Shown one piece after another: positions 24,450 through 53,778 of a stretch of DNA of 64,000 nt. Under the pieces are notes generated by a model. The model ran no database searches and was not told the origin of the DNA. It was given only the letters and a program-made list of their open reading frames with translations. The stretch spans positions 32,001-96,000 of the forward strand of contig CBDBFU010000009.1 in NCBI GenBank assembly GCA_965205025.1. The letters run 5' to 3'. Position numbers and translations under genes: made by a program. Position 1 is the stretch's first letter. The number at the start of each line of letters is the position of its first letter. Origin of the DNA: Candidatus Poribacteria bacterium (GTDB lineage Bacteria; Poribacteria; WGA-4E; WGA-3G).

Positions 24450-27200
24450 TCACTTCTCATGTTCCCATAAGATCATAGTTCCATCCGCACTTCCACTTGC
24501 GATGGTTTTTCCATCTGGGTTAAACACCACACTTTGAACCGAATCTTTATGTCCAGATAGGGTACGGATATGTTCACCTGTTTCAACATTCCATAGACGG
24601 ATGGTTCTATCATGACTTCCACTTACGATTGTTTTCCCATCTGGACTAAAAGACACACCACGAACATTACTCGTATGTCCAGATAGAGTACGGATATGTT
24701 CACCAGTTACCACATCCCATAGACGAATGGTGTCGTCCGAACTACTACTTGCAATGGTTCTTCCATCCGGTTTAAAAATCACTCTTATAACCGTATCTCT
24801 ATGTCCATATAGCGTTCGGATATGTTCTCCCCTTTCAACATTCCACAGACGGATGGTAGTGTCAATACTCCCACTTGCGATGAGACGTCCATCTGGACTA
24901 AACGACACGGTATAGACATTACTCGTATGTCCTGATAAGGTACGGATATGTTCACCTGTTTCAACATCCCATAGACGAATGGTGTCATCTCCACCTCCAC
25001 CCGCTATCATGGTGCCATCTGGACTAAACGATACGCTATCACGCCAACCTCTATACCCCGATATTGTGCGGATATGTTCTCCTGTTTCAACATCCCATAG
25101 ACGAATAGTTCTGTCACTGTCGCTTCCACTGGCAATTATGTTACCAGCCGGGTTATACAAGATACTGTCGATTGAAGCATTATGTCTCGTTGATATTGTG
25201 CGGATATGTTCTCCTGTGTGCGCGTGCCACAGACGGATGTCAAAACCACTCGCACCGATGATTGTGTTTCCATCCGGACTAAAAGAGACACTTCTTACTA
25301 CACGCATATGCTCCGATATTGTGCGGATATGTTCTCCTGTGTGCGCGTCCGACAGTCGGATGCTTTCACCCAGGTTACCACTCCAACCTGCAGTCGCGAT
25401 AGTTATGCCATCCGGACTAAACGACACACTGTCGACCTCACCCCTATGGTGCCAATTTTTGAGATGTGTACCTGTTTGTGTGTGCCACAAACGGGAGGTG
25501 TTGTCCATACTGCTACTTGCGATGAGACGTCCATCTGGACTAAACGACACACTGTACACATCACCTGAATGTTTCGTTAACGTCTGAAGGTGTGTACCAT
25601 CATGTGCGTTCCATAGATGGATTACATTGCCATCACCACCACTTGCAATGATGTTTCCATCCGGACTAAACGACACGCTATTCACATCATCAGTATGTCC
25701 AGATAGGGTACGGATATGTTTACCAGTTACCACATCCCACAAACGGATGGTTTTGTCATTACTTCCACTTACGATTGTCGTGCCATCCGGACTAAACGAT
25801 ACGCTATTCACATCATCAGTATGTCCAGATAGGGTGCGGATATGTTCACCAGTTACCACATCCCACAAACGGATGGTTTTGTCACTACTTCCACTTACAA
25901 TTACTTTTCCATCCGGACTAAATGACACGCTATTCACATCATCAGTATGTCTCAACATAGTGTGGATATTCTCACCAGTCTCTACATTCCAGAGTCGGAT
26001 AGTTTTATCCTTACTTCCACTTGCGATTGTCGTACCATCAGGATTAAAAGACACGCTGAGCACCTTATCCGTATGACCCATGTATAGATTAAGTTCTTCA
26101 CCGGTCTGTGTATTGTAGATCCAAATACCGATTGAACTTGCAACTGCAAACTTAGCGCCATCGGAAGAAAATACTATATCTTTTACATCACCTTTACCAT
26201 GTCGTATTTTTGCCCCTTTAGGTAAATGCCATTTTGTATAATCATGAACAGCTTTATCCACTTGTACTTCTTCAGAAAGTGCAGAAGTATCATTAGGTTG
26301 CAGTTCAGAAATATTATCTTCATTCTGAACATTGACACTGCCAATTTTTATTTTCACATCTGGCTCTACCTCCAAGTTTGCGACTATAGGTGTATCAATA
26401 ATATCAACAGTCATCTCAGTTTTCGCATTAATACTATAAGGTTGCTGAAATCGAATTTGGTATTGATTGTTTCCAAAACCAAGTATAAGTAATACAACTA
26501 TTAACGTGGATGCGGCAGCTGCCAATGGAGCTAAAGGTTTACTACTGGTGGGTGTTGAAACTTTAGTACGCGAAATCTCACCCATGATAGTTTCTGTTAG
26601 ATTCGGGGATATTTGGAAATTATCTAATGCCTCCCTTATGACCGGTTCTTCTTTCTGTAAACGCTGTTGCGCACGGTGAAGTCGACTTTTAACGGTATTG
26701 GCAGAAACACCTAAAAACGCACCAATCTCTTTACACGACATATCACCAAAATAGTGAAGTGTCATGACAGTCCGTTCACTTTCCTTGAGTTTCGCAAGCA
26801 GTTTTTGAACAACATCGCGTTTTGCTTGTCCAGACATACGCTCGTTTTCTTCAACAACATATTCGGAGTACGCTGCTTTTTCTAACTGCTCCTTGTCTGC
26901 CTGCTCAAGATGATCCAATGATTGTGTCTGCAAACGCTTTTTTCGCAGCCATGAACTGCAGCTGTTCGCTGCAATTACATAGAGCCAACTCACAAACTGT
27001 TGAGGCTCCTTCAGGGTTGTCAATCGCTTGTATGCCTTCAAGAATGTATCCTGCGTAATCTCTTCAGCGATATGAAAATCTCCGATTTTTCGCCACGCAA
27101 GCGCGTGAACCTGCTTTTGGTATTTTCTCACAAGCACGGAAAAAGCGTCATCATCGCCTGCAAGGACGCGTTGAATAAGCTTAACATCGTCGTTCTTCAT
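24450..27200 (-). CDS. ECF sigma factor-TM-WD40 fusion, copy 1
   Basis: sigma2 (AEEITQDTFLKAY...WLYVIA.N), sigma4 (MSCKEIG.FLGVSANTVKSRLHRA), TM helix, ~14 regular WD40 blades. Confidence 0.93.
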   Translation of the reverse strand: MKNDDVKLIQRVLAGDDDAFSVLVRKYQKQVHALAWRKIGDFHIAEEITQDTFLKAYKRLTTLKEPQQFVSWLYVIAANSCSSWLRKKRLQTQSLDHLEQADKEQLEKAAYSEYVVEENERMSGQAKRDVVQKLLAKLKESERTVMTLHYFGDMSCKEIGAFLGVSANTVKSRLHRAQQRLQKEEPVIREALDNFQISPNLTETIMGEISRTKVSTPTSSKPLAPLAAAASTLIVVLLILGFGNNQYQIRFQQPYSINAKTEMTVDIIDTPIVANLEVEPDVKIKIGSVNVQNEDNISELQPNDTSALSEEVQVDKAVHDYTKWHLPKGAKIRHGKGDVKDIVFSSDGAKFAVASSIGIWIYNTQTGEELNLYMGHTDKVLSVSFNPDGTTIASGSKDKTIRLWNVETGENIHTMLRHTDDVNSVSFSPDGKVIVSGSSDKTIRLWDVVTGEHIRTLSGHTDDVNSVSFSPDGTTIVSGSNDKTIRLWDVVTGKHIRTLSGHTDDVNSVSFSPDGNIIASGGDGNVIHLWNAHDGTHLQTLTKHSGDVYSVSFSPDGRLIASSSMDNTSRLWHTQTGTHLKNWHHRGEVDSVSFSPDGITIATAGWSGNLGESIRLSDAHTGEHIRTISEHMRVVRSVSFSPDGNTIIGASGFDIRLWHAHTGEHIRTISTRHNASIDSILYNPAGNIIASGSDSDRTIRLWDVETGEHIRTISGYRGWRDSVSFSPDGTMIAGGGGDDTIRLWDVETGEHIRTLSGHTSNVYTVSFSPDGRLIASGSIDTTIRLWNVERGEHIRTLYGHRDTVIRVIFKPDGRTIASSSSDDTIRLWDVVTGEHIRTLSGHTSNVRGVSFSPDGKTIVSGSHDRTIRLWNVETGEHIRTLSGHKDSVQSVVFNPDGKTIASGSADGTMILWEHEK

Positions 27201-27247
27201 TTAGACACCTCGAAAAAATGGTTGCATCACTCTGGTTTTATAAATTG

Positions 27248-27276
27248 TGACGCAACTTGGAAGTGCAACGGGTGCA
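27248..27276 (-). promoter_or_regulatory. Candidate ECF autoregulatory promoter, copy 1
   Basis: TGCACCC-N17-CGTCA on the minus strand. Confidence 0.7.
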
Positions 27277-27617
27277 TAATTCTGCAAATATAAAAGTGTG
27301 TTTACATAAGAAAATTTGAGATTTATTGGTAAATAGGAAATCTAAAGGAAATTATAACGGATTATATTTCTTCTGTTAGTAGAATTATACCATAAATTTG
27401 GTTTCTGGGAAGGATTTTGCAAAAGAAATAGATTTCACAGGAGATTCTTACTCAAAATTTAAGCAAAGTTAGGTTACGTGTGAACCTTTGAAGGACATAG
27501 AGCGGAAGGTGAACTGGCAGTGCCAACCTATTTCTTACACTACCAGTCTTATGTGAGGTGACAAGATTCAACTGCTTTAACGGTGGGGGTTCTGACTGCC
27601 TAAGATTCTTAATTCTC

Positions 27618-30559
27618 CTACCCAGCCGAACTTTTGAGGACTTCATCCCAATCCCACACAAGGATTGTACCATCCTGTCCCGTACTCACAAGCGTTTTAC
27701 CATCAGGTGAAAATACTAACGTTCCTACTGGTTCTGAGTGTCCATCAAGTGTAGTAAGTTTATCTCCAGATTCAATATCCCATAACTCAATTCCACCGTT
27801 CCTAAGTCCACTAACAAGCACGGTGTCATTTGGCGCAAACACTAACGTTTCAACACCTCCGTCAATTTCCCTTAGAAGCGTCAGTTTACTACCTCCCATT
27901 ACGCGAATTCGTTCATTACTTCCTATGGCAAGCAGTGCACCATTTGAAGAAAATGACAATGCTGCAATTGGTTTCCGTAGATTCTGTTCGGTTAGCGAAG
28001 TTAACACAGCACCAGTTTCTACATCCCACATCTCAACCTGTCCTTTCCAAGTTCCACTCACAACCTTCTTCCCGTCCGGAGAGAAGACCAAAGCACTGAT
28101 ACTTTGGAATTGATGTAGTAAGGCGTTGAGGTTTTCACCTGGTGGAAATACCAAAGCACCGTTTTGATCTAACTCCACTTTATCTGATAAAGGGTTATTG
28201 AGAACAGATCCTGTTTCCCTATTCCAAACGCAAACATTACCGAAACTGCTGAAAGCTACCGTTTTACCGTCAGGTGAAAAAGCAATTTCAATTGCTCCAG
28301 GAGGACCACCCATTGTTATCAAGTTTGCCAACTCATGTCCCGTCTGGACATCAGTAAAAATCACATCTCCTTTAGCACCTACGCTGACTAAATGAGATCC
28401 ATCGGACGAAAAAGCTAATCCAGATAACAAATCTTGATGTTTTGTCATCTGGACATCAGATTTTTGCCACGTTTTTAGATCCCAATGGGAAATAATACCA
28501 TTAATCTCCCCACTCAAAAGTGTAGTGTTATCTTTAAAAAAAGCTACTGCTTTCACCCACTCTGTGTGTCCGGTGATACGGGTCGGTAATGCAGCTCCAG
28601 TTTCTATATTCCAGAATCTGACCGTGCCGTCGGCACTACCGCTGACAAGTGTTGTGCCATCGGGTGAAAACGCTAAAGACCTAATTCTGTTTAAATGTCC
28701 AGTGAAAGTTTTGATTGGTTTACCCGTAGCGGTATCCCACAACTGTACGGTCTTATCAGTACTCCCACTGGCAAGCATTTTTCCATCCAGAGAGAATGCT
28801 AACACGCTTATCCGACCTGTGTGTCTTCTAAGGGTGATCGATTCGTCATTACTGGTAGTATCCGATATTAGGACTGTTGTATCCCTACTTCCACTGGCCA
28901 AGATATGTACCATCAGGCGAAAATGCCAGAGCTAATACACGCTTATCTACCTCCAAAGGCAATGGATCTTGATTTTTTCCAAAGAGCTTGCTTGAAATTC
29001 TTCTGAGAATTGTTAACTTTTCTGCATGTCCTCTGAGTGTAGATGTTTTTTTACCAGTCGTCGTATCCCACAACTCGATCCTTCCGTCCGTACCACCGAC
29101 AGCAAATTTATCATGTGTGAGCGCATAAGGTTCAGAATCACTTCGCCGCTTTATCACTTCCCAAGATCGTTCTTGGATCTCCTCCACATTTCCCCTTTTG
29201 GTTTCAATATCTAACTGACCAATTGAGTCTCCCCAATTTCCCAAACTGACAAGTGTTTTTCCATCTTCAGAAAACCGCAGTTCAGAGGCTGGTAAAAGAG
29301 CATTAGGGAGTGACACTTTGTTACCAGTAGCGACTTCCCACAGTTGAAGTTCCTTTCCACGGAATCTACCACCGCTTCCATATCTACCGCCTCCATTGGC
29401 AAGAAATCGTCCGTCAGGTGAAAATGCAAGGGATTGACACATACCAGGGAACATAGTCAATTCTTTCCCTGTTTTAGCATCATAAAGCCATACACCGATA
29501 TTACTACCTACCGCGAGTAGCGTGCCATCTGGTGAAAACTGCATAACATTAATTCCACCCTTTCCTAAACGCGCTTTCGCTGCCTTCGGCAATTCCCACT
29601 TTGTATAATCTTCTGCTATTTCATCTGTTTGCGTCTCTGCAATTGCTGGGGTGGCATCATTAAGTTGCATGTCAGAGTTATTGTCTTTATCCTGTGCGTT
29701 GACATTTCCAATTTTCACCTGCTCATTAGATGTTGATTCTAAGTTTGCGACTATTGGAGCGTCAACGATCTCAATAGACATCTCTGCATTTGCATCTAAA
29801 CTATAAGGTTTTTGAAAACGCGCCAGGTATTGATGGTTTCCAAAACCGAGCATGAGTAACACCACTAATAACGTGGAAGCGGCAGCTGCCCACGGAACTA
29901 AAGGTTTACCACTGGCGGGAGTTGAAATTTTTGTACGAGAAATCTCACCCATGATGGTTTCTGTTAGATTCGGGGATATTTGAAAATTATCTAATGCCTC
30001 CCTTATGACCGGCTCTTCTTTCTGTAAACGCTGCTGAGCACGGTGAAGTCTACTTTTAACTGTATTTGCGGAAACACCTAAAAACGCACCAATCTCTTTA
30101 CACGACATATCACCAAAATAGTGAAGTGTCATGACAGTCCGTTCACTTTCCTTAAGTTTCGCAAGCAGTTTTTTGAACAACATCTTGCTGTGTTTGTACG
30201 GTTATCCGTTCATTCTCTTCAAGCACGTACTCAGAATAAGTCGGTTTTTCACGATGTGTGGTATCTTTATCCTTTAGCAATTGCTTACGTAAATGCTTTT
30301 TTCGTAACCAAGAACTGCAGCGGTTTGTAGCAATCACATAGAGCCAACTCGCAAACTGCTGAGGTTCTTTCAGAGTTGTCAGTTTTTGGTATGCGTTCAG
30401 AAATGTATCTTGTGTAATCTCTTCTGCAGTATGAAAATCTCCAATCTTTCGCCACACCAAAGCGTGAACCTGTTTTTGGTATTTCTCCACAAGTTCCGCA
30501 AAAGCAGTATCATCACCATCAATACTACGATTTATTAATTGTACATCATTGCTTTTCAT
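27618..30559 (-). CDS. ECF sigma factor-TM-WD40 fusion, copy 2, split by two +1 frameshifts (~30172, ~28898)
   Basis: ORFs 30152-30559, 28885-30183 and 27618-28913 join into one colinear paralogue; T6 run where the paralogues have T5. Confidence 0.88.
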
Positions 30560-30584
30560 AGATCCCCTCCGATTTACCCTATAG

Positions 30585-30613
30585 TGACGCTATGAATAGG
30601 TGAAACGGGTGCA
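30585..30613 (-). promoter_or_regulatory. Candidate ECF promoter, copy 2
   Basis: TGCACCC-N17-CGTCA. Confidence 0.7.
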
Positions 30614-30788
30614 GAAATTTGAATGTTAGTATAGATCTACCATTCTGATGGATTTTGGAAATAGTAGCATACTATTGAAAAGTGTATTAAAGATGATATA
30701 TTGCATTATACAAATATGAATGATCTTAGATCCAGCAATGCGATAGAGAGATTATATATAGGAACATGAGAATCATAGAATATATCTT

Positions 30789-33719
30789 TTAAAGGTCCAA
30801 TTTTTCTTCTTCAGTTGAACCTTTAAGAACTTCTTCCCAATCCCATACAAGAATTGTACCGTCATATCCTGAACTAACAAGCGTTTTACCATTAGGTGAA
30901 AATGCCAGCGTCTTCACTGTTGCGGTGTGTCCTCTAAGTGTGGTAAGTTTGTCCCCAGTTTCAATATCCCACAGTTCAATCCCCCCGTCTATCCGACCAC
31001 CACTAACAAGCAATGGACTATCTGGCACAAATACTAATGTCGTTGTACCACTTTCAATTTTCCTCAGAAGCATCAGTTCATTACTTGCCATTACGTGGAT
31101 ACGCCTAGTATTTCCCACGGCGAGCAAAACACCATTTGAAGAAAATGACAATGTTGTAATACGATTCCACTTTGAAATCTGCCCAGTAAACGAAGCTAAA
31201 GCAACACCTCTTTCCACATCCCACATCTCAACATTCCCTTCACTGGTTCCGGTGACAAGTTTATCTCCGTCTGGTGAAAATGCCAAAGCAGTGATCCATA
31301 CATCACCTTGATCCGAATACTGGATATGCCGGATTTTGTTGGTTTCTATATTCCATAATTGAATTTTCCCGTACGAATTACTGTTACTACTAACACCGAA
31401 GACTGCCGTTTTTCCATCAGGTGAAAATGTTAGATCACTTGACCATCTTTCTTCATTGGAACGCGTCTTAGTGATCATCTCACGACCAGTGCTAACATTA
31501 GTCAAGCGAATTAGAAAAGTTCTTCCCAACCGAGAATTCGGGTTGTATTGAAATCCCTTACTGAGGAATTTGGATCCATCAGGTGAAAACGCTGGTAGAG
31601 GATTCATTGCCAAATCCGCTGTATTCTCAAAAGCAGTTTTAGTATGGTGTGTGATTGTTTGTCCTGTCTTGAGATTCCATAAGGTGATAATTCGTGCATA
31701 AGTGGCGCTTGCAAGTGTGGAACTATCATTCATGAAACTTAACGTTCTCACGTCAACGGTGTGTTCTGTAATGTTATGCGGCAACTGATCTCCTGTTTTG
31801 ATATTCCAATATAGGACAGTGCCATCTCTTCTACTTGCACTCGTAAGGGTGCTGCCATCAGGTGAAAACGCTAAATTGTAAACTTTATTAATGTGACCTG
31901 TAAAAGTGGCGAGAGATTCGCCGGTAGCAGCGTCCCACAATCTCACCTTATTGTTGTCTCCACTGGCAAGCATTTTTCCATCCGGCGAGAATACTAACAC
32001 TTTGGGACTGTCCGATTGTTTTTGTTGGAAGATAATATGTTCATTATTATCGGTAGTATTCCATAATCGCACTGTATTATCTAATCTTCCACTGGCGAGG
32101 CGCGTGCCATCAGGTGAAAATGCCAAGGATACGACGGGGTTCCGCTTGCGGTTTAAATAATATGGATCCTGAATCTTCTTTTGAGGTCCTGTAAGTGTAG
32201 ACACCTTTTTGCCAGTCTTTGAATTCCACAATTCAAGTATTCCGTTGTCTTCTCCTATCGCAACTTTATTGTGCGTGAGTGCATAGACTGCACTGGGAAG
32301 TGGCTCCAGATCCGGACGGTTTTCAATCTTCTTGACATCACTCATACCGGTTTCGATATCTATCCAACAGATAGTGTCTCCTGATTTATTCAGAACAACA
32401 AGTGTTTTGCTGTCTTTAGAGAACCAAAACACAGATGCAGCAGGTAGAGCATCGTGTAATGCCACTTCTTGACCTGTAGCTATCTCCCACAACTGGAGTC
32501 CTGTTTCGTAGCGGGTGCCGCCAGCCCTACTATTGGGATCACCTCCACCATTTACGAGGAAACGTCCATCTGGTGAGATTGCAAGTGATTCACATCTTCC
32601 CGGTAATAGCGAAGTTTCTTTGCCAGTCTCCGCATCATACAACCACACTCCTATATCACTCCCAACAGCGAGATGATTACCATCTGGAGAAAATTGCATA
32701 GCGCGAATACTCCCTTTTCCTAAACGTGTTTTCGCCTTTTCAGGTAATGCCCATTGTCTATAATCTTCTGCTATTTCATCTGTTTGCGTCTCTGCAATTA
32801 CTGCAGCGACATCAGGTTGCTTTTCAGGATTATTGTCTTTATTCTGGGCATTGACACTCCTAATTTGAAGTCGCACATTTGGCTTAGATTCTAAGTTTGC
32901 GATTATTGGAGCATCAACAATCTCAATAGACATCTCTGCATTTGCATCTAAACTATAAGGTTTCTGAAAACGCGCCAAGTATTGATGGTTTCCAAAACCA
33001 AGTATAAGTAATACAACTGCTAACGTAGAGGCTGCAACTGTCCATGGAAATAAAGGTTTACTACTGGTGGGTGTTGAAACTTTAGTACGCGAAATCTCAC
33101 CCATGATAGTTTCTGTTAGATTCGGGGATATTTGGAAATTATCTAATGCCTCCCTTATGACCGGTTCTTCTTTCTGTAAACGCTGTTGCGCACGGTGAAG
33201 TCGACTTTTAACGGTATTGGCAGAAACACCTAAAAACGCACCAATCTCTTTACACGACATATCACCAAAATAGTGAAGTGTCATAACAGTCCGTTCACTT
33301 TCCTTGAGTTTCGCAAGCAGTTTTTGAACAACATCGCGTTTTGCTTGTCCAGACATACGCTCGTTTTCTTCAACAACGTATTCGGAGTACGCTGTTTTTT
33401 CTAACTGCTCCTTGTCTGCCTGGTCCAGATGATCCAATGATTGTGTCTGCAAACGCTTTTTTCGCAGCCATGAACTACAGCTGTTCGCTGCAATTACATA
33501 GAGCCAACTCGCAAACTGTTGAGGCTCCTTTAGGGTTGTCAATCGCTTGTATGCCTTCAAGAATGTATCCTGCGTAATCTCCTCAGCGATATGAAAATCT
33601 CCGATTTTTCGCCACGCAAGCGCGTGAACCTGCTTCTGGTATTTTCTCACAAGCACGGAAAAAGCGTCATCATCGCCTGCAAGGACGCGTTGAATAAGCT
33701 TAACATCGTCGTTCTTCAT
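30789..33719 (-). CDS. ECF sigma factor-TM-WD40 fusion, copy 3
   Basis: Same architecture; N-terminal ~220 aa almost identical to copy 1. Confidence 0.93.
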   Translation of the reverse strand: MKNDDVKLIQRVLAGDDDAFSVLVRKYQKQVHALAWRKIGDFHIAEEITQDTFLKAYKRLTTLKEPQQFASWLYVIAANSCSSWLRKKRLQTQSLDHLDQADKEQLEKTAYSEYVVEENERMSGQAKRDVVQKLLAKLKESERTVMTLHYFGDMSCKEIGAFLGVSANTVKSRLHRAQQRLQKEEPVIREALDNFQISPNLTETIMGEISRTKVSTPTSSKPLFPWTVAASTLAVVLLILGFGNHQYLARFQKPYSLDANAEMSIEIVDAPIIANLESKPNVRLQIRSVNAQNKDNNPEKQPDVAAVIAETQTDEIAEDYRQWALPEKAKTRLGKGSIRAMQFSPDGNHLAVGSDIGVWLYDAETGKETSLLPGRCESLAISPDGRFLVNGGGDPNSRAGGTRYETGLQLWEIATGQEVALHDALPAASVFWFSKDSKTLVVLNKSGDTICWIDIETGMSDVKKIENRPDLEPLPSAVYALTHNKVAIGEDNGILELWNSKTGKKVSTLTGPQKKIQDPYYLNRKRNPVVSLAFSPDGTRLASGRLDNTVRLWNTTDNNEHIIFQQKQSDSPKVLVFSPDGKMLASGDNNKVRLWDAATGESLATFTGHINKVYNLAFSPDGSTLTSASRRDGTVLYWNIKTGDQLPHNITEHTVDVRTLSFMNDSSTLASATYARIITLWNLKTGQTITHHTKTAFENTADLAMNPLPAFSPDGSKFLSKGFQYNPNSRLGRTFLIRLTNVSTGREMITKTRSNEERWSSDLTFSPDGKTAVFGVSSNSNSYGKIQLWNIETNKIRHIQYSDQGDVWITALAFSPDGDKLVTGTSEGNVEMWDVERGVALASFTGQISKWNRITTLSFSSNGVLLAVGNTRRIHVMASNELMLLRKIESGTTTLVFVPDSPLLVSGGRIDGGIELWDIETGDKLTTLRGHTATVKTLAFSPNGKTLVSSGYDGTILVWDWEEVLKGSTEEEKLDL

Positions 33720-33953
33720 TTAGACACCTCGAAAAAATGGTTGCATCACTCTGGTTTTATAAATTGTGACGCAACTTGGAAGTGCAACGGGTGCATAATT
33801 CTGCAAAAATAAAAGTGTGTTTAGATAAGAAAATTAGAGAATTATTGGTAAACAGGAAATCTGAAGGAAATTATAACGGATTATATTTCTTCTGTTAGTA
33901 GAATTATACCATAAATTTGGTTTCTGGGAAGGATTTTGCAAAAGAATTAGATT
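33052..33953. repeat. ~900-bp near-identical duplication of 26533-27434 (ECF module plus upstream region)
   Basis: Constant offset of 6519 bp with scattered substitutions. Confidence 0.92.
33767..33795 (-). promoter_or_regulatory. Candidate ECF promoter, copy 3
   Basis: TGCACCC-N17-CGTCA. Confidence 0.7.
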
Positions 33954-34148
33954 GTGATGGGGTCTTATCTCAAGATTTACGTATAGTTTGGTTGCGCGTG
34001 AACCTTTGAAGTACATAGCGCGGAAGGGGCAGGACAAATTGTGCAAGTCTATCTTATCCTGGTAAAGTCTCCTTTTATTATCAATTAGTATTCGGTGTCC
34101 GTTAGCACCGTTTACGACTAACAGACACCTAAAGTACCCGTTCAAAGT

Positions 34149-34622
34149 TTATGATTTTCTTTCGGCACGCTTTTTCTCTTCAGGTTTGGAAGGCTCATCT
34201 GTATCAGAGTTACCTTCTAAAAACTTCATGATAGCTTCGCCCTTTTCGCGGCTTTCTGAAGGAATTACCTTTCTAGCTTTCATCGTCTTTATAATTCTCG
34301 CCCCAAACTTCTCCCGGAAAACGGCCAAACGTTTGTGCCTCTCTGTACGTTTTTCCTCTGTAGTTGCAGAATCGGGCAGTTTTGACCTCAGAATTTCGGG
34401 CAATTCTGCCATTATCTCCCTACCGAGTTGAAGCGCTACATCCTTTTCTTTTGGATCGTCAATGCATTCTATGAGGGTCGGATCGTCTTCACATTCTTTA
34501 AGAAGACGTTGTAATTTATCAAACTCTTGTTGAAATAATGCCTCGTGTGCTTCAGCTTCTGCTGTCTTTTCAGAATCATCAGAAACTGGTTCAGGGTTCA
34601 CAAGCAATTTCTTAGTTCCCAT
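34149..34622 (-). CDS. Hypothetical charged alpha-helical protein within the ECF array
   Basis: AAGGAG RBS before ATG 34622; protein-like composition. Confidence 0.65.
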   Translation of the reverse strand: MGTKKLLVNPEPVSDDSEKTAEAEAHEALFQQEFDKLQRLLKECEDDPTLIECIDDPKEKDVALQLGREIMAELPEILRSKLPDSATTEEKRTERHKRLAVFREKFGARIIKTMKARKVIPSESREKGEAIMKFLEGNSDTDEPSKPEEKKRAERKS

Positions 34623-34929
34623 TTTGGTTCTCCTTTCACCGCACATTCATGAAAAATGTCGGTTGAATTCTTTCCAGTTAAAACCGTTGTGGCCAACCGG
34701 AAATCGTTACCTGAGTAAGATTGAGTCTTTTGCCGATCTTACCGCAATTGTCCTTGAAACGTCAAATACACAAGCATCAACTTTTGATGGCTTACAGATA
34801 CCTTGACTGATAACCAGTACGTTCACAATTAAAACGTTATAATGTCTAATAAAAACTATTTACACAACGCCAGTAAATAGAGAGGCACCACTTTCTTTAT
34901 AATTCTAATCTTTTTCCGAACTCACGTAT

Positions 34930-37929
34930 CTACTTATTTTTCTCTCGGTTAGAACCTTTGAGAACTTCATCCCAATCCCACAGAAGAATTGCGCCATCTT
35001 GCCCTGTACTCATAAGTGTTTTGCCATCAGGTGAGAACACCAACGTCTTCACTGGCGCCGTGTGTCCATCAAGTATAGTCAGTTTGTCTCCTGTTTCCGT
35101 GTCCCATAGCTTAATTCCACCATAATTAAGTCCCGCAACAAGGATGCGATTATCTGGTGAAAATACAAACACTTCAACAATAAACGTTTTGGCACCATGG
35201 GACACTTCCTTAAAAGTGATCTGTTCCTTAATCTCAATCAAACGGATTTGTTTATGAGTTGCCACAACAAGCAAATTGCCATTTGGCGAGAATGCCAATG
35301 TTTTAATACTTTCCTTATAAAGGATGCCACTGTTATCAGTTTTGCCACTGAATACCGGTTCCTCTCCCGTAAAGAGAAGTGCTAACGGAATTCCAGTTTT
35401 CGCATCCCACATCTGCACTTTTCCGTCCTTGGTTCCACTAACAAGTTTTTTGCCGTCTGGCGAAAAAACTAAAGTGCTGATTGTAGACTTAAACTTGCGC
35501 TTGTGCTTGCGCTTGCGCTTAACGTTCTGATATGAGGGGGATATATCAGGGAGAGATATATCAGAAATCTCACCTGTCTCTGTATTCCATAGACGAATCT
35601 TACCAGAATTGCTGAATGCCACCGTTTTTCCATCAGGTGAAAAAGCCACGGGTGAAAAAAATCCTTTTTTCGCAGCCAAAGTCTGCAACTGGCGTCCCGT
35701 CCTAACATTACTCAGACGAACCAGCGGCTCATCCCACTTTATAGGGGCATCTGGGAAGGCTCTATTACCTTTTTCACGAAAACTGACGAGCTTTGTCCCA
35801 TCAGGTGAAAACGTTGAAAACGATGATAACCCATGTTGCCGTCTTTCTAGGTAGAAATCGGTTGTTTGCAATGCATTCGAACCTGTTTTTTGTGATGTTT
35901 TCACATCCCAAAGGCTAATTACCTGATCATAAGCGACACTCGCAAGCGTGGTGTTATCTTTAAAGAAAGTTACTGCTTCCACCTCCATTGTGTGTCCGGT
36001 GATGCGTGTGGGTAATAGATTCCCATTTTTGATATTCCAAAATCGGACTGTGCCCATTGTAGTTGCACCGGCTAGTATGCGATTATCTGGTGAAAACGTT
36101 AAAGCAATGATGCCGCCGGCATGACCTGTGAAAGTGGTGATAGGCTCACCAGTGGCGACATCCCACAATTGCACTGTTTGCTCTGTCTTACGTCTCCCTC
36201 CGCAGGCAAGCATTTTTCCATCCGATGAGAATGCTAACACGTCGACCTTCTTCGCGTGTTTGTCAAGGAGAATAGATTCGTTGCTGTTGGTATCCCATAA
36301 TTGTAATGTGAATGTTTCATCATTATTTTCACCTGCACTCGCGAGACGTGTGCCATCAGGTGAAAATTCCAAGGCTAAAAGAGATGTGTTTCCCTTGAGT
36401 GTAAACAGTATTTTGCCGGGTATTTCTCCGGTCGTTGTGTCCCGCAACTCAATCTCAGTTCCCATTCCAACTGCAAATTTATCATGTGTGAGCGCATAGT
36501 ATCTATGATCAACGATCGTCGGTGTCTGATCTTCCGTAATACGCTTCAACATTCTTTTACCGGTTTCAACATCCAGCCGGAGGAAAATGGTTCCCCACAC
36601 GTCATCCAAACCAAAAAGTGTTTTGCCATCTGCAGAGAACCGCAATACTGAGGCATGCGGAAAAAGACGAGGAGTGAGTTGCATTTTCTGACCGGTAGCT
36701 ACTTCCCACAACTGGAGTCCCACTGCAAACAACCGGTTTCCCTTTCTGTGAGAACCTCCAATACTGCCTGCAAGGAAGTGGCCGTCTGGAGAAAATGCGA
36801 TGGATTCGTACTTACCGGGGAACATGGATACTTCTTTACTCGTTTTCGCATCATAAAGCCACAAACCGATATCGCTGCCTACCGCGAGTAGCGTGCCATC
36901 TGGTGAGAATTGCATGACATTAATTCCACCCTTGCCTAAACGCGCCTTTGCCTTTTCAGGCAATTCCCATTTTGTCCAATCTTTCACAATTTCATCCCCT
37001 TGTGCCTCTGCAACTGCTGCAGAAGCATCATTCGGTTGCTGTTCAGGGTTATTGTGTTTATTCAATGCATTGACATTTTCTATTTGCATCCGCACATCAG
37101 GTTTGGATTCTAAGTTCGCAACAACAGGTGCGTCAATGATCTCAACTGCCATCTCCGAGGTAGCATCTAAACTATAGGGTTTCTGAAAACGTGCCAGGTA
37201 TCGGTGATTTCCAAAACCGAGCATGAGTAACACGACTACTAACGTGGAAGCAGCTACTGCCCATGGGACTAACGGTTTACTACCAGACGGTTTTACGGGT
37301 TTGGTCCGCGAAATCTCACGCATGATATTGTCAGTAAGATTCGGAGTGATTTTGAAATTGTCTAAAGCCTCTCTTATGACCGGTTCTTCTTTCTGTAAAC
37401 GCTGTTGCGCGCGGTGAAGTCGACTTTTAACGGTATTGGCAGAAACACCTAAAAACGTTCCAATCTCTTTACATGACATATCTCCAAAATAGTGAAGTGT
37501 CATGACAGTCCGTTCACTTTCCTTAAGTTTTGAAAGCAGTTTTTCGACAACAATACGCTGGGTTTCTACCGAGGAGCGTTTGTTTTCTGTAGCAACATAT
37601 TCCGAATAAGTTGATTCTTCAGGTTGTGTGCTATCAATCTTCTCTTGCAGTTGGGTTCGGATGTTTTTATTACGTAACCATGTATTGCAAAGATTTGAAG
37701 CAATTACATACAACCATCCAGCAAATAGATGTGGTTTCTTCAAAGTTCTGAGTTGCTGATATGCCCTCAGAAATGTATCCTGCGTAAGTTCTTCAGCAAA
37801 ATGAAAATCCCCAATTTTCTTCCACACAAGGGCATGAACCTGTTTTTGGTATTTTTCAACAAGCTCCGAGAATGCATTATCATCACCTTCGAGACTGCGG
37901 TGAATCAGGTGTGTATCATTGTTTATCAT
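34930..37929 (-). CDS. ECF sigma factor-TM-WD40 fusion, copy 4
   Basis: Same architecture, 999 aa; GGAGG RBS. Confidence 0.93.
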   Translation of the reverse strand: MINNDTHLIHRSLEGDDNAFSELVEKYQKQVHALVWKKIGDFHFAEELTQDTFLRAYQQLRTLKKPHLFAGWLYVIASNLCNTWLRNKNIRTQLQEKIDSTQPEESTYSEYVATENKRSSVETQRIVVEKLLSKLKESERTVMTLHYFGDMSCKEIGTFLGVSANTVKSRLHRAQQRLQKEEPVIREALDNFKITPNLTDNIMREISRTKPVKPSGSKPLVPWAVAASTLVVVLLMLGFGNHRYLARFQKPYSLDATSEMAVEIIDAPVVANLESKPDVRMQIENVNALNKHNNPEQQPNDASAAVAEAQGDEIVKDWTKWELPEKAKARLGKGGINVMQFSPDGTLLAVGSDIGLWLYDAKTSKEVSMFPGKYESIAFSPDGHFLAGSIGGSHRKGNRLFAVGLQLWEVATGQKMQLTPRLFPHASVLRFSADGKTLFGLDDVWGTIFLRLDVETGKRMLKRITEDQTPTIVDHRYYALTHDKFAVGMGTEIELRDTTTGEIPGKILFTLKGNTSLLALEFSPDGTRLASAGENNDETFTLQLWDTNSNESILLDKHAKKVDVLAFSSDGKMLACGGRRKTEQTVQLWDVATGEPITTFTGHAGGIIALTFSPDNRILAGATTMGTVRFWNIKNGNLLPTRITGHTMEVEAVTFFKDNTTLASVAYDQVISLWDVKTSQKTGSNALQTTDFYLERRQHGLSSFSTFSPDGTKLVSFREKGNRAFPDAPIKWDEPLVRLSNVRTGRQLQTLAAKKGFFSPVAFSPDGKTVAFSNSGKIRLWNTETGEISDISLPDISPSYQNVKRKRKHKRKFKSTISTLVFSPDGKKLVSGTKDGKVQMWDAKTGIPLALLFTGEEPVFSGKTDNSGILYKESIKTLAFSPNGNLLVVATHKQIRLIEIKEQITFKEVSHGAKTFIVEVFVFSPDNRILVAGLNYGGIKLWDTETGDKLTILDGHTAPVKTLVFSPDGKTLMSTGQDGAILLWDWDEVLKGSNREKNK

Positions 37930-37970
37930 AGATTCCCTCCGATTATATTTTTCACCTTTTATATTTATAA

Positions 37971-37999
37971 TGACAACGCAAAGGAATAAATGGGGTGCA
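37971..37999 (-). promoter_or_regulatory. Candidate ECF promoter, copy 4
   Basis: TGCACCC-N17-TGTCA. Confidence 0.65.
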
Positions 38000-43505: not shown

Positions 43506-46500
43506 TTATTCTTCAAGTTGTATGATCTCTTCAGGTACCTGGATTTCATCAAGATCTGATTCTTCAATACCATCTTTGGAAACTTCCAGCTCCAGCCAAC
43601 TTGAGAATCCAGTACCTGCCGGAATTAATCGTCCAAGGATGACGTTTTCCTTCAGACCTGTAAGGTAATCGGTCTGTCCTTCAACAGCAGCATCTGTAAG
43701 AACTTTCGTTGACTGCTGGAAACTTGCAGCAGAAATGAAACTATCAGTACTTAAAGCTGCTTTACTAATACTCTGTAGGAGTGGTTCACCTGTTGCAGGT
43801 GTACCACCTTCATCTGCTACACGTCTATTTTCAGCATGGAACCTACGTCGACTAACCTCATCGTTAGCATAAAATCTGGTATCTCCAATCGTAAGAATAC
43901 GGATTTTCTGTAGCATTTGTCGGACAATTACTTCGACGTGTTTATCATTGATGATATTCTTACCGTAGACAGTCTGAACTTCATCAACAAGATATGTCCA
44001 TACTGCCTCTTCACCTTCAAGTGAAACTCCGTTGATATTTGCTCTACCGATACTAAGTATATCGTGTGGATTCAGATATCCATCCGTTAAGGGTTGTCCA
44101 GCTTCGACAATGTCACCAGCATCAACACGTCGTTTTTCATCGGGGATCGAGTAAAGGCGACTTTTGGCTGCATCATCAACAATCCGATACTGTGGAACAC
44201 CAGCTTTTTGACCCGTTAGCTGCAATTCCCCAGCAATCTCGGCGATTTCAGCTGCATCTTCACGTTTTGGACGTCGTGCTTCAAAAAGCTCAGTCACCCG
44301 TGGTATCCCTACGACAATGTCAAGGTTCGTAGTTTTCTCGTGTAATTCTGCTAACCCGTGTTGTGCATTCACCTTTTCCCCATCTTCAACAGAAACAGAA
44401 TATCCGGCTGGGATAAGGTGTGAAACGCGTCCTCCACCTTCAACGTCAATATCAATCCTGAAGGTTTCAATCAACTCATCAACATCAACACCACCATACT
44501 GTTCTATGGCTCTCTCAAATTCCCAATCGTTTAACTCTTGGCCAACAGTAAGTGTACAGTTTGGATGAATTACCTTTGTAATTTCATAGGTGTTTTTTGA
44601 GGTTAGTGCTGATTTAGCCTTGTAATCAGCATCACTTAAAATTTCATCTTTAGTAACCTCAGATCCAGAGTCGTTAACTGCCGTGACTTTATACACGCGA
44701 TCAGTATCAAAACCCTTATAAAGACGTTGTGCCTTCTTGTATTCATTCTCATCAATTTCCTGTTGTGGGACAAGTGCACAATCTTCATGATGAACAGCAA
44801 GGATCAAATAAAAACGTTGGATCTCAGGCAATGGTGTTTCTGTGTCTCTATGGTGTTTGACGAGAGCTTTGTGATCTGTCTCAGTCAATACTTCCTCTGT
44901 ATCAGCTCCTTCAGGGGTATACTTGTAAAGTTTCTCAAAATCAAAGCCTTTATAGCTTCTTCTGAATCGATTGGATTCAGACTGAGTAATAACCTCATCA
45001 ACAGCTACAGGAAAATCAGGATGATGAATAGCAGAAACTTTATAAAGCCGTTCAACCTCAAATGCTCCTTCGTTCTTAGTAATGTTAACTTCAAATCCAG
45101 GAAATTCCTTAAGAACAGCCTTTTTCTCATTCTCGGTGAGGAGCGTATCGGTTTCTAACTTACAATTTGGATGATACACAGAGGTTATACGATATTTAAG
45201 ACGTTCAGCAGAGAATCCACCGAATTTATCTTTGAGGGAATCATAGTTGTCTTGTTCAATCAATTCACCAGGTTTGAGCGGACATTCACTATGTGATATT
45301 TCTGATACACGATACAGTTCATTACTTAAAAGCGATACTTCAAACGCCTTTTCATTTAGGAATCTATCTCTATATTCCGACTCAGATAATTGTTGTCCGA
45401 CAGTCAGATCAACCCCATCAGATACTTCTGTAACTGTGCGTACTGGATCCCCGAGTTCAAGATGATATTGACTTTCCTCTTCAGGGGTTAACAAGTGTCC
45501 TTCCTTAAATGGACAACTTGTATGGGTAATAGTCTGAATTTCATATCTCATCTCAGCGTTAAGGGTGTTCTGTTTCCGTAAGTATTCACTTTCGGTGAGG
45601 ATATCACCCGATGTGGTTCGATATACCCATTTTCCATCGAAAGGTCGAATCTCAGTTTTCCATTTTTCAGCTTCAGTCTCAGTCACTAATGTACCCTCCT
45701 TCAGAGAACTTTCAGGGTGCATTACCCGTATCACAGGATACTGAGGTTCGGAACAACGGAATAGAGCAAATCGATGTAAACAGGCATTATACTCTTGATC
45801 TGTAAGATACTGTCCTTCCTGTAAGGCAAATCCTTCCCCACTATTAGCCTCAATTACATCTGGACGATTTACGGCTTCAATTACCCGTGTAATGGGTACC
45901 ACCTCAAAACCAGGATAACGCTCCTTGTTCTCCTCATGCTGCTTAATAGTAAGTAGTTCATTCGGTTGGAGTTTACAGTCAGGATGTTCAACTGTCTTCA
46001 CTTTATAGTTTGCTTGGTCAAGATGATCAGCAACTTTTTGAACAATCCAGAGTCCACCTTCTTCACGGACTGTCCTCCCAGGTATAAAATCACGAAAGCG
46101 AACAACACCAGATGCTTTAGCAGGGATCTTCCGGGCAAGACGTTCACTCACATCTTCAACCACACCACCCGTATGAAATGTTCGCATTGTTAACTGTGTT
46201 CCTGGTTCCCCGATTGATTGTGCAGCAATAATTCCGATTGCTTCACCAACATTAACCATTTGTCCTGATGTTAAATCAGAACCGTAACAATGAGCACAAG
46301 ATCCCTTTTCGGTCTCACAGGTAAGTATAGATCTAACACGAACACTGGAGACTTCAGCATCTTCTATTATTTGCGCCATTTGAGGTGTAATCATTGTATC
46401 ACTTTCGACAAGAACTTCATCAGTAGTAGGATGAACTACATCCTCAACTGCCACACGACCACTGATTTTAAATCCTATTGATCCGGCACTCGTAGTGAAT

Positions 46501-49109: not shown

Positions 49110-49209
49110 TCTTATGCTCCTTTAATGGTTGGGGGTGCAATGGTTATCGGTACTCAATATTATAGAATCAGTTTAAAAAGAAAAATTAACATCTACTGAT
49201 TACCGATAA

Positions 49210-52200
49210 CTATTCGGTATCGTCGGTATCCCAAGTAAGTTTAAGAGGGGGTTCATCATCAACAGGTTCCATCGTATCTACCGTATGTAAGATTGGTAGA
49301 CCCGACTCATGAAGAGCTGCTTGGATTGAATCAAGCTCTGACGGGTTACCTTCAGATAATTCAACATTTAATCCAAGACTTTGAAGTTCTCTAACTAACA
49401 CATTGAAGGACTCTGGTGTACCGGGTTTCAATGGGCTTTGACCTTTGACAATTGATTCGTAGATTTTAGTCCTACCCTTAACATCATCCGATTTGATGGT
49501 CAACATTTCTTGAAGGGTATGTGCAGCACCGTATGCTTCTAATGCCCATACTTCCATTTCACCAAGACGTTGTCCTCCGTGTTGTGCTTTCCCACCGAGG
49601 GGTTGTTGTGTTACTAAGGAGTATGGACCCGTCGAACGGGCATGCATCTTATCTGCAACAAGGTGGTTCAGTTTCAGGAAATAGACATAACCAACTGTTA
49701 CTTCCTGTCCAAACGCGTCACCTGTACGTCCATCGTATAGAACACTTTTACCAGTTTTCTTGACGCTCTCAAGTAATTCTGTATCTTCTAACATCTTAAA
49801 CACTTCTGCTTCTGTAGCCCCATCAAATACAGGAGACGCCACATAATAACCGAGTTCTTTACATGCTAATCCTAAATGAATTTCAAGGATTTGACCAACA
49901 TTCATGCGTGATGGAACTCCGAGAGGATTCAAGACAATATCAACAGGTGTGCCATCAGGAAGATATGGCATATCTTCTTCAGGTAGAATCTTGGCAACAA
50001 CACCTTTATTTCCGTATCGTCCAGCCATTTTATCACCGATGGATATTGGACGTCTGCTTGCAACATATACTTTTACGAGTTTCAAAACACCGGGTTTTAG
50101 TTCTTCACCGGAGGTAAGTTTTTCTAATGCCTCCTCTTTTTCATCCGTATATGCTTTTTCCCGTCCGACAGCGAGTTCTTGCAGACTTTTAATATAATCA
50201 ACAGTTTCAGTATCTGTAATCTGAAGCGTTTCAAGTTGCTTTTGTGATAACCCCTCAAGAAAATCACGTGTCAGTATATCTCCAGCCTCTAATTGCTGAG
50301 GTGAGTCAGATTTTTCGGTATCTTCAGGTTCATCATCATAAAGGATAGTTGTAGGATACGCCAACTCTTTGTTTAGCAAAGAGTCGCGCATCTCCTCTGT
50401 TAAACGATCTGAAATCTGTTGACGCTGTTCTTCCCAGGTCTGTTCAATTTGCTTACGGAGTGAATCTTGCCGTAGGGCAGTTCTGTCACTATTGGGTGTC
50501 GCTTGTCGTGAAAAGACTTTCACATCAATTACAACACCTTCGACACCCGGGCGTGTGTAGGCAGAAGCATCTTTTACTTCTTTTGATTTTTCACCAAATA
50601 TAGCACGTAGAAGTTTTTCTTCGGGTCCTGTCTCACTTTCACCTTTAGGAGAGATTTTACCTACCAGGATACTGCCCGTTCCTACAACACTACCTATCCT
50701 TATAATACCTTCGTCATCAAGCTGTGCCAGACTCCGTGCTGACATGTTAGGAATATCTCTGGTAATCTCTTCATCACCCATTTTTGTTTGCCTGGCCGCG
50801 ACTTCAAATTCTTCAATATGGATAGAGGTGAATGTATCCTGCTTTATAAGAGATTCACTGATAAGTATTGAATCCTCAAAGTTATGTCCACCCCACGGCA
50901 TATAAGCACATAAGATATTCCGTCCAAGTGCCAGTTCCCCACCTTCCGTTGCTGTGCCATCTGCAATGACATCTCCAGTTTCAACAACATCTCCAATATT
51001 CACACGTGGACGCTGATGAATACAAGTACCACTATTACTACGTTTGAAGTTTTTTAGTTTATAAACATCATAACCCATTTCACTGAAAGCATGTTCACCT
51101 TCTTCAACATGGAGTGCTTGTCCAGTTCGGATGAGTATTTCTTCTGCGTCAACGCTTGAAACAACACCACCCCGATGTGCGATAACCATTGCATTCGCAT
51201 CACGTGCAGCACGATGTTCCATTCCTGTACCCACCCATGGTGCTTCAGGGCTGATCAAGGGTACAGCTTGTCTTTGGTGGTTAGCACCCATCAATGCACG
51301 GTTAGCATCTTCGTGTTCAAGAAATGGAACAAGAGCAGCGGAAACACCAACGATCTGTTGCGGGGCAATACCTACATAATCTATCTCTTTCAGATCTCGT
51401 TCAAGCACCTCTTCACCCTTACGACTGCGAACAGGAACGTCTTTTTTACGGGCAGGGATAGCGTCAGCCGGTGCAATATGGAACTTGTCCTCAGCATCTG
51501 CTGTTAGATACTCAACATTTTGAGTAATTTTACCATTGCTAACTGTACGATACGGTGTTTCTAAAAAACCGTAAGGATTAACTCTGGCAAACGTTGCTAA
51601 TGAAACTATAAGGCCGATTGATGGACCTTCAGGGGTTTCTAATGGACACACGCGACCATAATGGGTACGATGTACATCTCGAACCGCCGCAGTAGCGCGA
51701 TCTCGATGTAGTCCTCCAGGACCAATAGCTGAAATTCTTCGTTTATGCGTGAGTTCATCTAATGGGTTTATCTGTTGCATAAACTGGGAAAGTTGATTTG
51801 ATCCGAAAAACTCACGAAGCGCACTCATGAGCGGCTTTGGGTTTACTAAGTTTTTGGGATTCTTTAACTGGGCATCGGCAGTTGTGCTCAGTTTCTCACG
51901 TGCTGCCCGACGCATTTGTAACATAGCAATACGAAATTGGTTTTCAAGAAGTTCTCCAATAACACGAACTCGACGATTTCCAAGATGATCTAAATCATCA
52001 ACTTCTTTATGTCCGTTTCGAATATGCATCAGGTGTTGTAATGTGGCAGCAATATCTTCTCGACGAAGAACCCGATTTTCTTCATCAGGCAACCCTTCGG
52101 ATTCTTCCTGATATACTTCTAAATCACCCAGTTGTGAGTTGAGTTTGTATCTACCAACCGTACCTAAATCGTAACGTGCACCATCAAAAAATAATCGTTC

Positions 52201-53232: not shown

Positions 53233-53778
53233 AAAGTTCACCTTGTGCAGATTGCAGATGGGTTGAAGGTTTTACTATCGGACTTTCGTAACAACTAATT
53301 GACAGTATACCGATCGGATAACAATATTCACGACAACAGATACTGATTTCTACTGAATGCGTTTTATTCAATGCTGTTGTATGAGTTTCTAACATACTTT
53401 GATTTATAGGAATGGTGACTCGTTTTGAATTGTGAAATGGATGGCGTATTCGTTCTCACATCCAATAATTGTGACTCTACTTACCCTAAGATATTAAGGA
53501 TACGGATCACTATATACAGATGTCTATTGATAGGAAGACACGCTATTGACGGTAACATGTTCAAGGCGCGAAAAGACACTTGACTACACACCACTTTTAA
53601 ATAACATGCAAGTCAAGTACTGGATATTCTTTGACACTACCGCAATCAATTATAGACATCCCTTGTTTAGATACAAAAACAGTTGCCAATATATCAAAGA
53701 AGGTGTATACTTCACTAAACTAAAGCGACTCTAACTTCAAGGCTAATACTTATTTACCTTCTTAAGGCGTAACGTAAC

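Follow-up and report, generated by a model that had tools for sequence, protein, structure and literature searches.

A tandem array of membrane-tethered ECF sigma factor-WD40 proteins in a Poribacteria genome, with a conserved and putatively autoregulatory promoter element

Sigma factors of the extracytoplasmic function (ECF, group 4) type have as a hallmark a bipartite promoter with a CGTC-like -10 element upstream of their own gene, by which they are often autoregulated. One of their groups, ECF57, may have borne the older name 'ECF01-Gob'. In the accessible text of its descriptions, ECF57 is found to 100% in Planctomycetes, and its proteins are prolonged at the C-terminus by a long extension in which about two membrane helices lie on average (Casas-Pastor et al. 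2021, PMC7826278; PMC8999054); WD40-like repeats are a feature of 21% of one subgroup, and two cysteines, of which sigma2 and sigma4 each contain one, are completely conserved (PMC7826278). The same sources describe IutY (ECF243) of Pseudomonas putida as a sigma/anti-sigma hybrid activated by regulated proteolysis, through Prc and then RseP, and propose proteolytic activation for SCO4117 (ECF52) of Streptomyces coelicolor (PMC8999054). In ECF266 of the Clostridiales, an outside beta-propeller protein with a single membrane pass, encoded by a separate gene adjoining the sigma gene, is thought to control an autoregulated ECF sigma factor (PMC7826278, as far as its accessible text goes), whereas sigma factor and propeller form one polypeptide in the locus described here. 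This locus lies in a stretch of 64,000 nucleotides from the genome of a sponge-associated Candidatus Poribacteria bacterium (GenBank assembly GCA_965205025.1, contig CBDBFU010000009.1, positions 32,001 to 96,000), hereafter called the window, and consists of four genes on the same strand, c1 to c4, each coding for an ECF sigma domain, a membrane helix and WD40 repeats and each preceded by the element TGCACCC-N17-YGTCA.

The array of four such genes, first noticed in a preliminary description of the DNA, is present as described: c1, c3 and c4 are intact, and c2 is split as written in the window (Table 1). On the c2 fragments, Pfam matched Sigma70_r2 (PF04542, 1.4e-14) and Sigma70_r4_2 (PF08281, 6.5e-14); every copy matched propeller families, with WD40 (PF00400) reaching 2.9e-140 over 12 stretches of c1. 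When the first 200 residues of c3 were compared with NCBIfam, the ECF superfamily model TIGR02937 matched residues 18-184 with 105.6 bits against a cut-off of 42.9, and the nearest of the finer models were of the SigW/RpoE type, under their cut-offs. The sigma part is thus that of an ECF (group 4) factor, with sigma2 and sigma4 domains only and a match to the superfamily model. After it, a simple pattern search found a single hydrophobic run of 22 residues (222-243 in c1 and c3, 219-240 in c4), with lysine and arginine on its N-terminal side and fewer after it, a charge pattern around the predicted helix that fits a cytoplasmic sigma domain and a propeller outside. The tether from the end of sigma4 to the helix, about 35 residues long, has the conserved motif NLTENIMREISR, and the juxtamembrane stretch RFQKPYSLDA on the outside is strongly conserved. 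The high divergence of the propellers reported earlier holds for c1 against the other copies (29-32% identity) but not among c2, c3 and c4, which are mutually 44-52% identical. Twelve of the 14 WD40 units of c1 end in a recognisable RLW-type motif; among these 12, variation clusters at a few positions that follow GH and DG, which we take to lie on the top, ligand-binding face of the propeller.

The promoter element is likewise found where it had been reported, before each copy. The window contains four exact matches of TGCACCC-N17-YGTCA, all on the minus strand, with cores 54-76 nucleotides upstream of the start codons of c1-c4, against a mean of 0.02 in shuffled sequence, where none of 100 shuffles reached four. 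In the whole genome (5.66 Mb in 33 contigs, 95% complete) the pattern has 9 matches, compared with 1+1 in a backwards control, and 8 of the 9 stand upstream of genes of the same family. By tblastn with the N-terminal 260 residues of c3, this family counts 51 paralogues in the genome, each at least 44% identical across sigma domain, tether and helix. From these paralogues we built a two-block weight matrix (a 9-mer, a gap of 13-17 nucleotides and a 7-mer), whose consensus, TATGCA(A/C)CC-N16-GCGTCA(C/T), makes the motif the core of a longer element. A site above 8 bits was found upstream of 43 of the 51 paralogues and one of at least 17 bits upstream of 35 of the 51; most start 55-87 nucleotides before the start codon and three at 112-129. 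Since the matrix was trained on this genome's own paralogues, other genomes provide the fair test of the promoter. There, the expected enrichment upstream of homologues was clear: a site of at least 17 bits lies within 160 nucleotides upstream of 63 of 71 homologue loci, as against 0 of 414 control stretches, which were coding segments and the upstream region read in antisense, and the sites start at two fixed distances, 55-57 and 78-82 nucleotides.

When the upstream regions are aligned, column identity reaches 90-100% over TTTGCAGAATTATGCACCCGTTT and AGCGTCAC, which are the -35 and -10 blocks, within poorly conserved flanks, and another block, TTGCAGAATTA, is conserved just upstream of the -35. 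The TTGTCA variant of the -10, which c4 carries, recurs before homologues in other genomes (L030, L038, L042). Within the array, the upstream regions of c1 and c3 are 78-99% identical, and those of c2 and c4 share little outside the motif, as had been seen before. An ECF-type promoter before the own gene is thus present and conserved at the sequence level. We regard the element as real, conserved across species and shaped like an ECF promoter with a CGTC-type -10, and transcription presumably proceeds from it. Promoters of the sigma-70 type number 36 in the region, no enrichment over the 30.2 ± 5.0 of shuffled sequence. Two sigma-70-like sites, at window positions 27351-27411 and 33870-33930 on the minus strand, with 10 of 12 matches each and one with an extended TG, lie 100-160 nucleotides upstream of the ECF-type promoters of c1 and c3; such sites could supply the basal expression that a positive feedback loop needs.

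Within this genome the -35 blocks fall into the classes TGCACCC, TGCACCA, TGCAACC/T, TGCAATT, TGAGAC/TGAAAC, CGCGACC and GTAACC, each of them paired with its own version of the sigma4 recognition helix. We compared 108 pairs of promoter and protein, of which this genome supplied 41 and other genomes 67. The alignment columns of the protein that tell most about the -35 positions are S172, C156, H175, K157, K171, N168, A161 and Q178, all eight within the helix-turn-helix of sigma4; the best partners of the -10 lie outside sigma4, in sigma2 and the linker. K171 accompanies the final C of TGCACCC in 67 of 68 pairs and R171 the final A of TGCACCA in 20 of 21, and in the same way TGC goes with S172 (94 of 98) and TGA with N172 (6 of 7). 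Given that the promoter adjoins sigma2 and that sigma2 and sigma4 have had separate recombination histories, co-inheritance should link the promoter more to sigma2, and the link of the -35 with sigma4 is therefore meaningful. The pattern fits the view that each sigma factor reads its own promoter, without proving it.

The near-invariance of sigma4 among the copies, also reported in the preliminary description, was confirmed, with 0 to 3 non-synonymous differences in 61 codons. Its origin appears to lie in gene conversion. The synonymous divergence (pS) of the copies is 0.23-0.25 in sigma4 as against 0.76-0.83 in sigma2, and between c3 and c4 it falls from 0.83 in sigma2 and 0.71 in the linker to 0.25 in sigma4. 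Constraint at the nucleotide level was considered as the cause and rejected: in 1105 pairs across the family with saturated sigma2, pS in sigma4 has a median of 0.76, a 5th percentile of 0.59 and a minimum of 0.23, so that sigma4 is not generally constrained at silent sites, and among all these pairs c1-c4 (0.23) ranks lowest and c3-c4 (0.25) third lowest. This points to a recent exchange of the sigma4 patch among the four local copies by gene conversion, and to an invariance that would not be due to selection only.

Other parts of the genes are also mosaic. The promoter and sigma2 of c4 are nearly identical to those of a gene elsewhere in the genome, C2:268479-271478 (sigma2 pS 0.08), and its sigma4 is like that of c1 and c3; with that gene, c4 has a sigma4 pS of 0.46 and does not share the propeller either. 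The genes c1 and c3 are 96-100% identical in nucleotides from the promoter through the helix (sigma2 non-synonymous divergence, pN, 0.008), then fall to about 35%, with propellers 30% identical in protein, and sigma2 of c4 differs from that of c1 and c3 with a pN of 0.20. Patches of 84-92% identity between c2 and c3 or c4 are scattered along the propellers. Taken together, the family seems to evolve by gene conversion and module exchange, with breakpoints between sigma2 and sigma4 and after the helix. As a separate observation, two adjacent family genes at C28:126931-131945 (plus strand) have an almost identical promoter and first residues (sigma2 pS 0.08); the first of them is without the sigma4 region in the alignment and could have arisen by rearrangement or as a chimera.

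As written in the window, c2 is read as three overlapping open reading frames (30152-30559, 28885-30183 and 27618-28913). Compared with its paralogues, the breaks come from two insertions of one base each, a run of five A read as six and one extra G. The contigs of run X1, the best match, have 0.96 of the sampled words of window positions 27600-30650 and lack one base at 28898 and one at 30169, the exact break points of c2, with otherwise no differing letter; the contigs of the relatives X3 and X4 lack both extra bases as well. X1 is possibly the sample behind the assembly of the window, and would then be a second assembly of the reads, not an independent organism. Because the extra bases are absent from the contigs of X1, X3 and X4, the idea that c2 is a pseudogene with two frameshifts was dropped; c2 is probably whole, and the breaks are most likely errors or rare variants of this assembly. 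Without the two bases it would have 979 amino acids, by arithmetic from the coordinates. At least seven further family members are cut short and continue in another frame (for example C2:353822, C2:360619, C16:63172, C16:81837, C26:80974 and C28:116988); given the result for c2, these may be homopolymer assembly errors instead of decayed genes.

The array is a sample of the 51-member family, which has at least six -35 classes in this genome, and not the self-contained system of four inputs that had been envisaged. The paralogues are mostly 900-1400 amino acids long and many stand in tandem arrays; two members, one each, have a C-type lectin domain or a PD40/DPPIV-type propeller behind the same sigma-helix module. 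With a profile of the N-terminal module, the family was found in 74 of 81 sampled genomes of the phylum, and most genomes of the window's own GTDB family have at least 32 members. In a collection of species genomes, 526 stretches were confirmed as relatives, the best 80 of which are titled Candidatus or uncultured Poribacteria, or 'uncultured bacterium'. A protein search gave at least 7441 clusters among 8000 scored candidates; among the matches listed, both names given by the source begin with 'sigma-70 family RNA polymerase sigma factor'.

From what was observed, namely the architecture, a conserved promoter, the link between this promoter and sigma4 residues, and a mosaic history, we propose as the best and a reasonably probable explanation that these genes are a tandem set of autoregulated, membrane-tethered sigma-WD40 switches of one promoter/sigma4 class. 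Each protein would be a one-protein switch, with an ECF sigma domain in the cytoplasm held through the tether of about 35 residues and a single helix to an extracytoplasmic double WD40 propeller, and each gene would stand behind its own ECF-type promoter, TATGCACCC-N16-GCGTCAC (with TTGTCAT in c4). A signal received by the propeller might lead a site-2 protease to cleave the membrane helix and free the sigma domain. The encoded sigma factor most likely reads its own promoter, which would give positive autoregulation, and an activated copy would probably raise the other three and about seven further genes of the same class elsewhere in the genome. The identical sigma4 would be kept by gene conversion between neighbours, and recombination would join the promoter-sigma module to different propellers. 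We have moderate confidence in positive autoregulation and in cross-activation within one class, which is plausible among the four copies because they have a common -35 class and a near-identical sigma4; in the release by regulated intramembrane proteolysis, for which a site-2 protease gene and the invariant proline and glycine residues at the helix ends speak, our confidence is low to moderate.

Several points weigh against this explanation. No anti-sigma domain that would hold the tethered sigma factor inactive was found with Pfam: the interval of about 35 residues between sigma4 and the helix has no Pfam match and no zinc-finger or RskA-like anti-sigma domain of about 80 residues, and FecR is not among the 24 families listed for the middle fragment of c2, which runs from sigma4 to the first propeller blades. 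Complex prediction between the sigma domain (residues 1-190) and the tether with the helix (191-250), in which the tether would act as a minimal anti-sigma element, gave a score of 0.06, which speaks neither for nor against such a role. A Peptidase_M50 (site-2 protease) gene exists in the window genome (213 bits), but its presence says little because all 14 control genomes carry one. The matrix counts within this genome are partly circular. A tree built without the sigma4 columns shows only 3-13 changes in states of the K171/R171 and S172/N172 type, and its supported branches yield just 1-2 independent pairs; with so few independent changes, the independent-pairs test reaches no significance and significance is not attainable for the association of the -35 with sigma4. 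No public run recorded as RNA contains the stretch. With its different -10 (TTGTCA) and about 30% different sigma2 residues, c4 may be only partly interchangeable with the other copies and full cross-recognition is doubtful, as is the earlier idea of fully interchangeable sigma domains. Finally, a strict pattern for the class (TGCACCC, 16-18 nucleotides, YGTC[AT]) has 17 sites in the genome, 11 of them before family genes; the other 6 are fewer than the 9 in the reversed genome used as control. No targets outside the family thus stand out for this class, which is odd for a sigma factor. The single shared regulon that had been proposed is thus not visible beyond the family.

With the general matrix, a threshold of 17 bits gave 73 sites in the genome against 14 in the control; 35 of the 73 precede family genes and 38 do not. 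When the threshold was raised to 20 bits, 8 non-family sites remained, one of them a family fragment, compared with 3 in the control. The best non-family sites precede a gene that we assume from its N-terminal sequence to be MoxR-like, small exported proteins and a small membrane protein, and none of them lies within the window. Of the 38 non-family sites, 9 lie within 3 kb of a family gene, an enrichment given that this zone makes up 4.1% of the genome; three of these nine belong to a single repeated element, another is a family fragment, and none is close to the array studied here. In a further observation, three copies of TTTGCACCT-N17-GGGTCAT, 0.5-1.2 kb apart at G000:C32:50396-52114 (minus strand), are directed away from C32:52325, a family gene with this -35 block in its own promoter. 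The sole well-supported targets of the TGCACCC promoter class thus appear to be the sigma-fusion genes themselves. This leaves two readings, target genes with weaker sites or receptors that are themselves the main output.

The differences between c4 and the other copies could also mean that the four genes are insulated channels, each copy mainly activating its own promoter and its own targets with a specificity that lies in sigma2 and the -10, and the common -35 and sigma4 being a by-product of gene conversion. The TTGTCAT of c4 as against GCGTCAC, the distance of its sigma2 from c1 and c3, the recurrence of TTGTCA before homologues elsewhere and the existence of promoter classes across the family argue for this, which we consider unlikely but deserving of attention. 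However, c1, c2 and c3 all have GCGTCAC, and c1 and c3 cannot be insulated from each other because their sigma2 domains are near-identical and their promoters identical. A tethered sigma factor might, in turn, work without being cut, by recruiting RNA polymerase at the membrane or through a modulation of its activity by the oligomeric state of the propeller, in the manner of one-component regulators bound to the membrane. Cleavage is required by none of the findings, and the tether is short and has no anti-sigma domain between sigma4 and the helix. Against this stand the release of IutY by proteolysis and the proteolytic processing proposed for SCO4117, both in the accessible text of PMC8999054, as well as the invariance of the helix-breaking proline and glycine residues at the ends of the helix (P222, P225 and G241, invariant in 50 homologues), and we judge an uncut sigma factor rather improbable.

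The remaining alternatives concern the reader of the motif and its origin. Another regulator or a separate soluble ECF sigma factor could read the motif while the fused sigma factors act on other promoters; about 15 more distant small ECF-like genes exist in the genome, and the conserved block TTGCAGAATTA just upstream of the -35 would suit such a regulator. Yet the -35 bases track residues of the fused sigma4, not of sigma2 or the tether, and the six or more -35 classes would remain unexplained by one regulator from outside, so that this explanation has little to recommend it. That the common motif is a functionless remnant of recent duplication is suggested by the near-identical upstream regions of c1 and c3, but it is scarcely credible: c2 and c4 keep the motif though their remaining upstream DNA has diverged, and its retention before 63 of the 71 homologues elsewhere, within DNA that is otherwise unconserved, already contradicts this reading.

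The autoregulated switches proposed here, if the receptors are their own main output, would amount to about fifty single-protein sigma receptors per cell, in a handful of promoter/sigma4 classes and with modules shuffled by conversion. Apart from a few neighbours, the receptor genes are almost the only targets that can be detected for these promoters. We offer this extension as a conjecture with a modest chance of being right. If true, the sensing of a ligand would mainly amplify the display of WD40, lectin and other 'eukaryote-like' surface domains of the matching class, an inducible and self-amplifying repertoire of binding proteins for life in the sponge and not a classical stress regulon. 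The literature counts WD40 proteins among the 'eukaryote-like repeat proteins' that abound in Poribacteria, and presumes that they help the bacteria to deal with their host (PMC3909097, PMC8163846). The word 'sigma' does not occur in PMC3909097 (Kamke et al. 2014) and appears in the accessible part of PMC8163846 only as the name of a supplier, and no link between WD40 and sigma factors is drawn in the text available from the two sources. In the openly accessible literature that was searched, no paper links Poribacteria to sigma factors of the ECF type. Should dozens of these proteins in each genome prove to be sensor halves of sigma factors tethered to the membrane, a large part of the load of repeat proteins would be signalling hardware. 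The family may also serve as a natural series for how the sigma4 of ECF factors reads the -35, with K171/TGCACCC and R171/TGCACCA, and as a case of recombination rewiring sensors to promoters, and its promoter classes are a possible source of orthogonal sigma/promoter pairs. What this window adds is the structure of promoter/sigma4 classes, a probable origin of the 'invariant' sigma4 in gene conversion, the lack of a visible regulon beyond the family, and breaks in c2 that are probably assembly errors.

Table 1. Features of the array and of the family. Positions are those of the window, except for the non-WD40 members, which lie elsewhere in the genome.
Feature	Position	Strand	Description
c1	24450-27200	minus	916 amino acids, intact; ECF sigma (sigma2, sigma4), tether, one transmembrane helix, 14 regular WD40 units of 42 amino acids
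c2	27618-30559	minus	same architecture as c1, c3 and c4; three open reading frames in the window
c3	30789-33719	minus	976 amino acids, intact; ECF sigma, transmembrane helix, double WD40 propeller
c4	34930-37929	minus	999 amino acids, intact; ECF sigma, transmembrane helix, double WD40 propeller
c1 promoter core	27248-27276	minus	TGCACCC-N17-CGTCA within TATGCACCC-N16-GCGTCAC; 27.0 bits; site start 78 nucleotides before ATG
c2 promoter core	30585-30613	minus	TCTGCACCC-N16-GCGTCAC; 24.9 bits; site start 56 nucleotides before ATG
c3 promoter core	33767-33795	minus	identical to c1 core; preceded by conserved block TTGCAGAATTA
c4 promoter core, variant -10	37971-37999	minus	TATGCACCC-N16-TTGTCAT; 21.1 bits; site start 72 nucleotides before ATG
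c3 sigma4 (codons 140-200)	33120-33302	minus	patch homogenised among the four copies (pS 0.03-0.25); holds the -35-covarying helix residues C156, K171, S172 and H175
c3 membrane helix (residues 222-243)	32991-33056	minus	P222, P225 and G241 invariant in 50 homologues
Orphan open reading frame	34149-34646	minus	165 amino acids; between c3 and c4
Non-WD40 family members	C28:216951-218996 and C14:104360-106246		C-type lectin domain and PD40/DPPIV-type propeller

The neighbours of the array are sucD, panB, trpE, trpG and the orphan reading frame, within housekeeping flanks (sucD, panB, trpE, trpG, fumC, rpoB and rpoC), and the earlier statement that no anti-sigma gene is evident nearby agrees with this. 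The orphan product is acidic and lysine-rich, has no Pfam or NCBIfam match and has no relative in the genome or in the 71 loci from other Poribacteria. Further along, rpoC (1867 amino acids) and rpoB (1343 amino acids) are intact at window positions 43506-53241 on the minus strand; rpoC is unusually long compared with its model of 1147 positions, which suggests lineage-specific insertions.

Among the known systems, as they appear in the accessible text of the sources cited above, ECF57 comes closest, and the likeness lies in an ECF sigma factor with a long extension at its C-terminus that includes a membrane helix and WD40-like repeats, without a separate anti-sigma gene, and c1, c3 and c4 carry a cysteine in sigma2 (C81) and one in sigma4 (C156), c2 being left out as broken. 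In contrast to the planctomycetal ECF57 with its approximately two helices, the present family belongs to Poribacteria and has one hydrophobic helix by pattern search, and C81 is found in 105 of 108 family members but C156 in only 59 of 108, whereas the cysteine pair of ECF57 is completely conserved. Because of these differences in phylum, apparent helix number and C156, in a comparison made by description, we do not file the family under ECF57. With IutY, which like SCO4117 is a characterised sigma fusion to a membrane segment, it has in common a single polypeptide with an N-terminal ECF sigma domain, a membrane segment and a sensing part outside, and proteolysis would be the mechanism here too; IutY differs in having a FecR-type anti-sigma part and in working with an outer-membrane siderophore receptor, where the present proteins have a WD40 double propeller and no FecR was found. 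SCO4117 similarly has an ECF sigma domain fused through membrane helices to an extracytoplasmic binding domain, but this actinobacterial ECF52 protein has a zinc-finger anti-sigma domain and a carbohydrate-binding domain, neither of which was found here. The array is thus a lineage-specific variant of a known design, the one represented by ECF57, IutY and ECF52.

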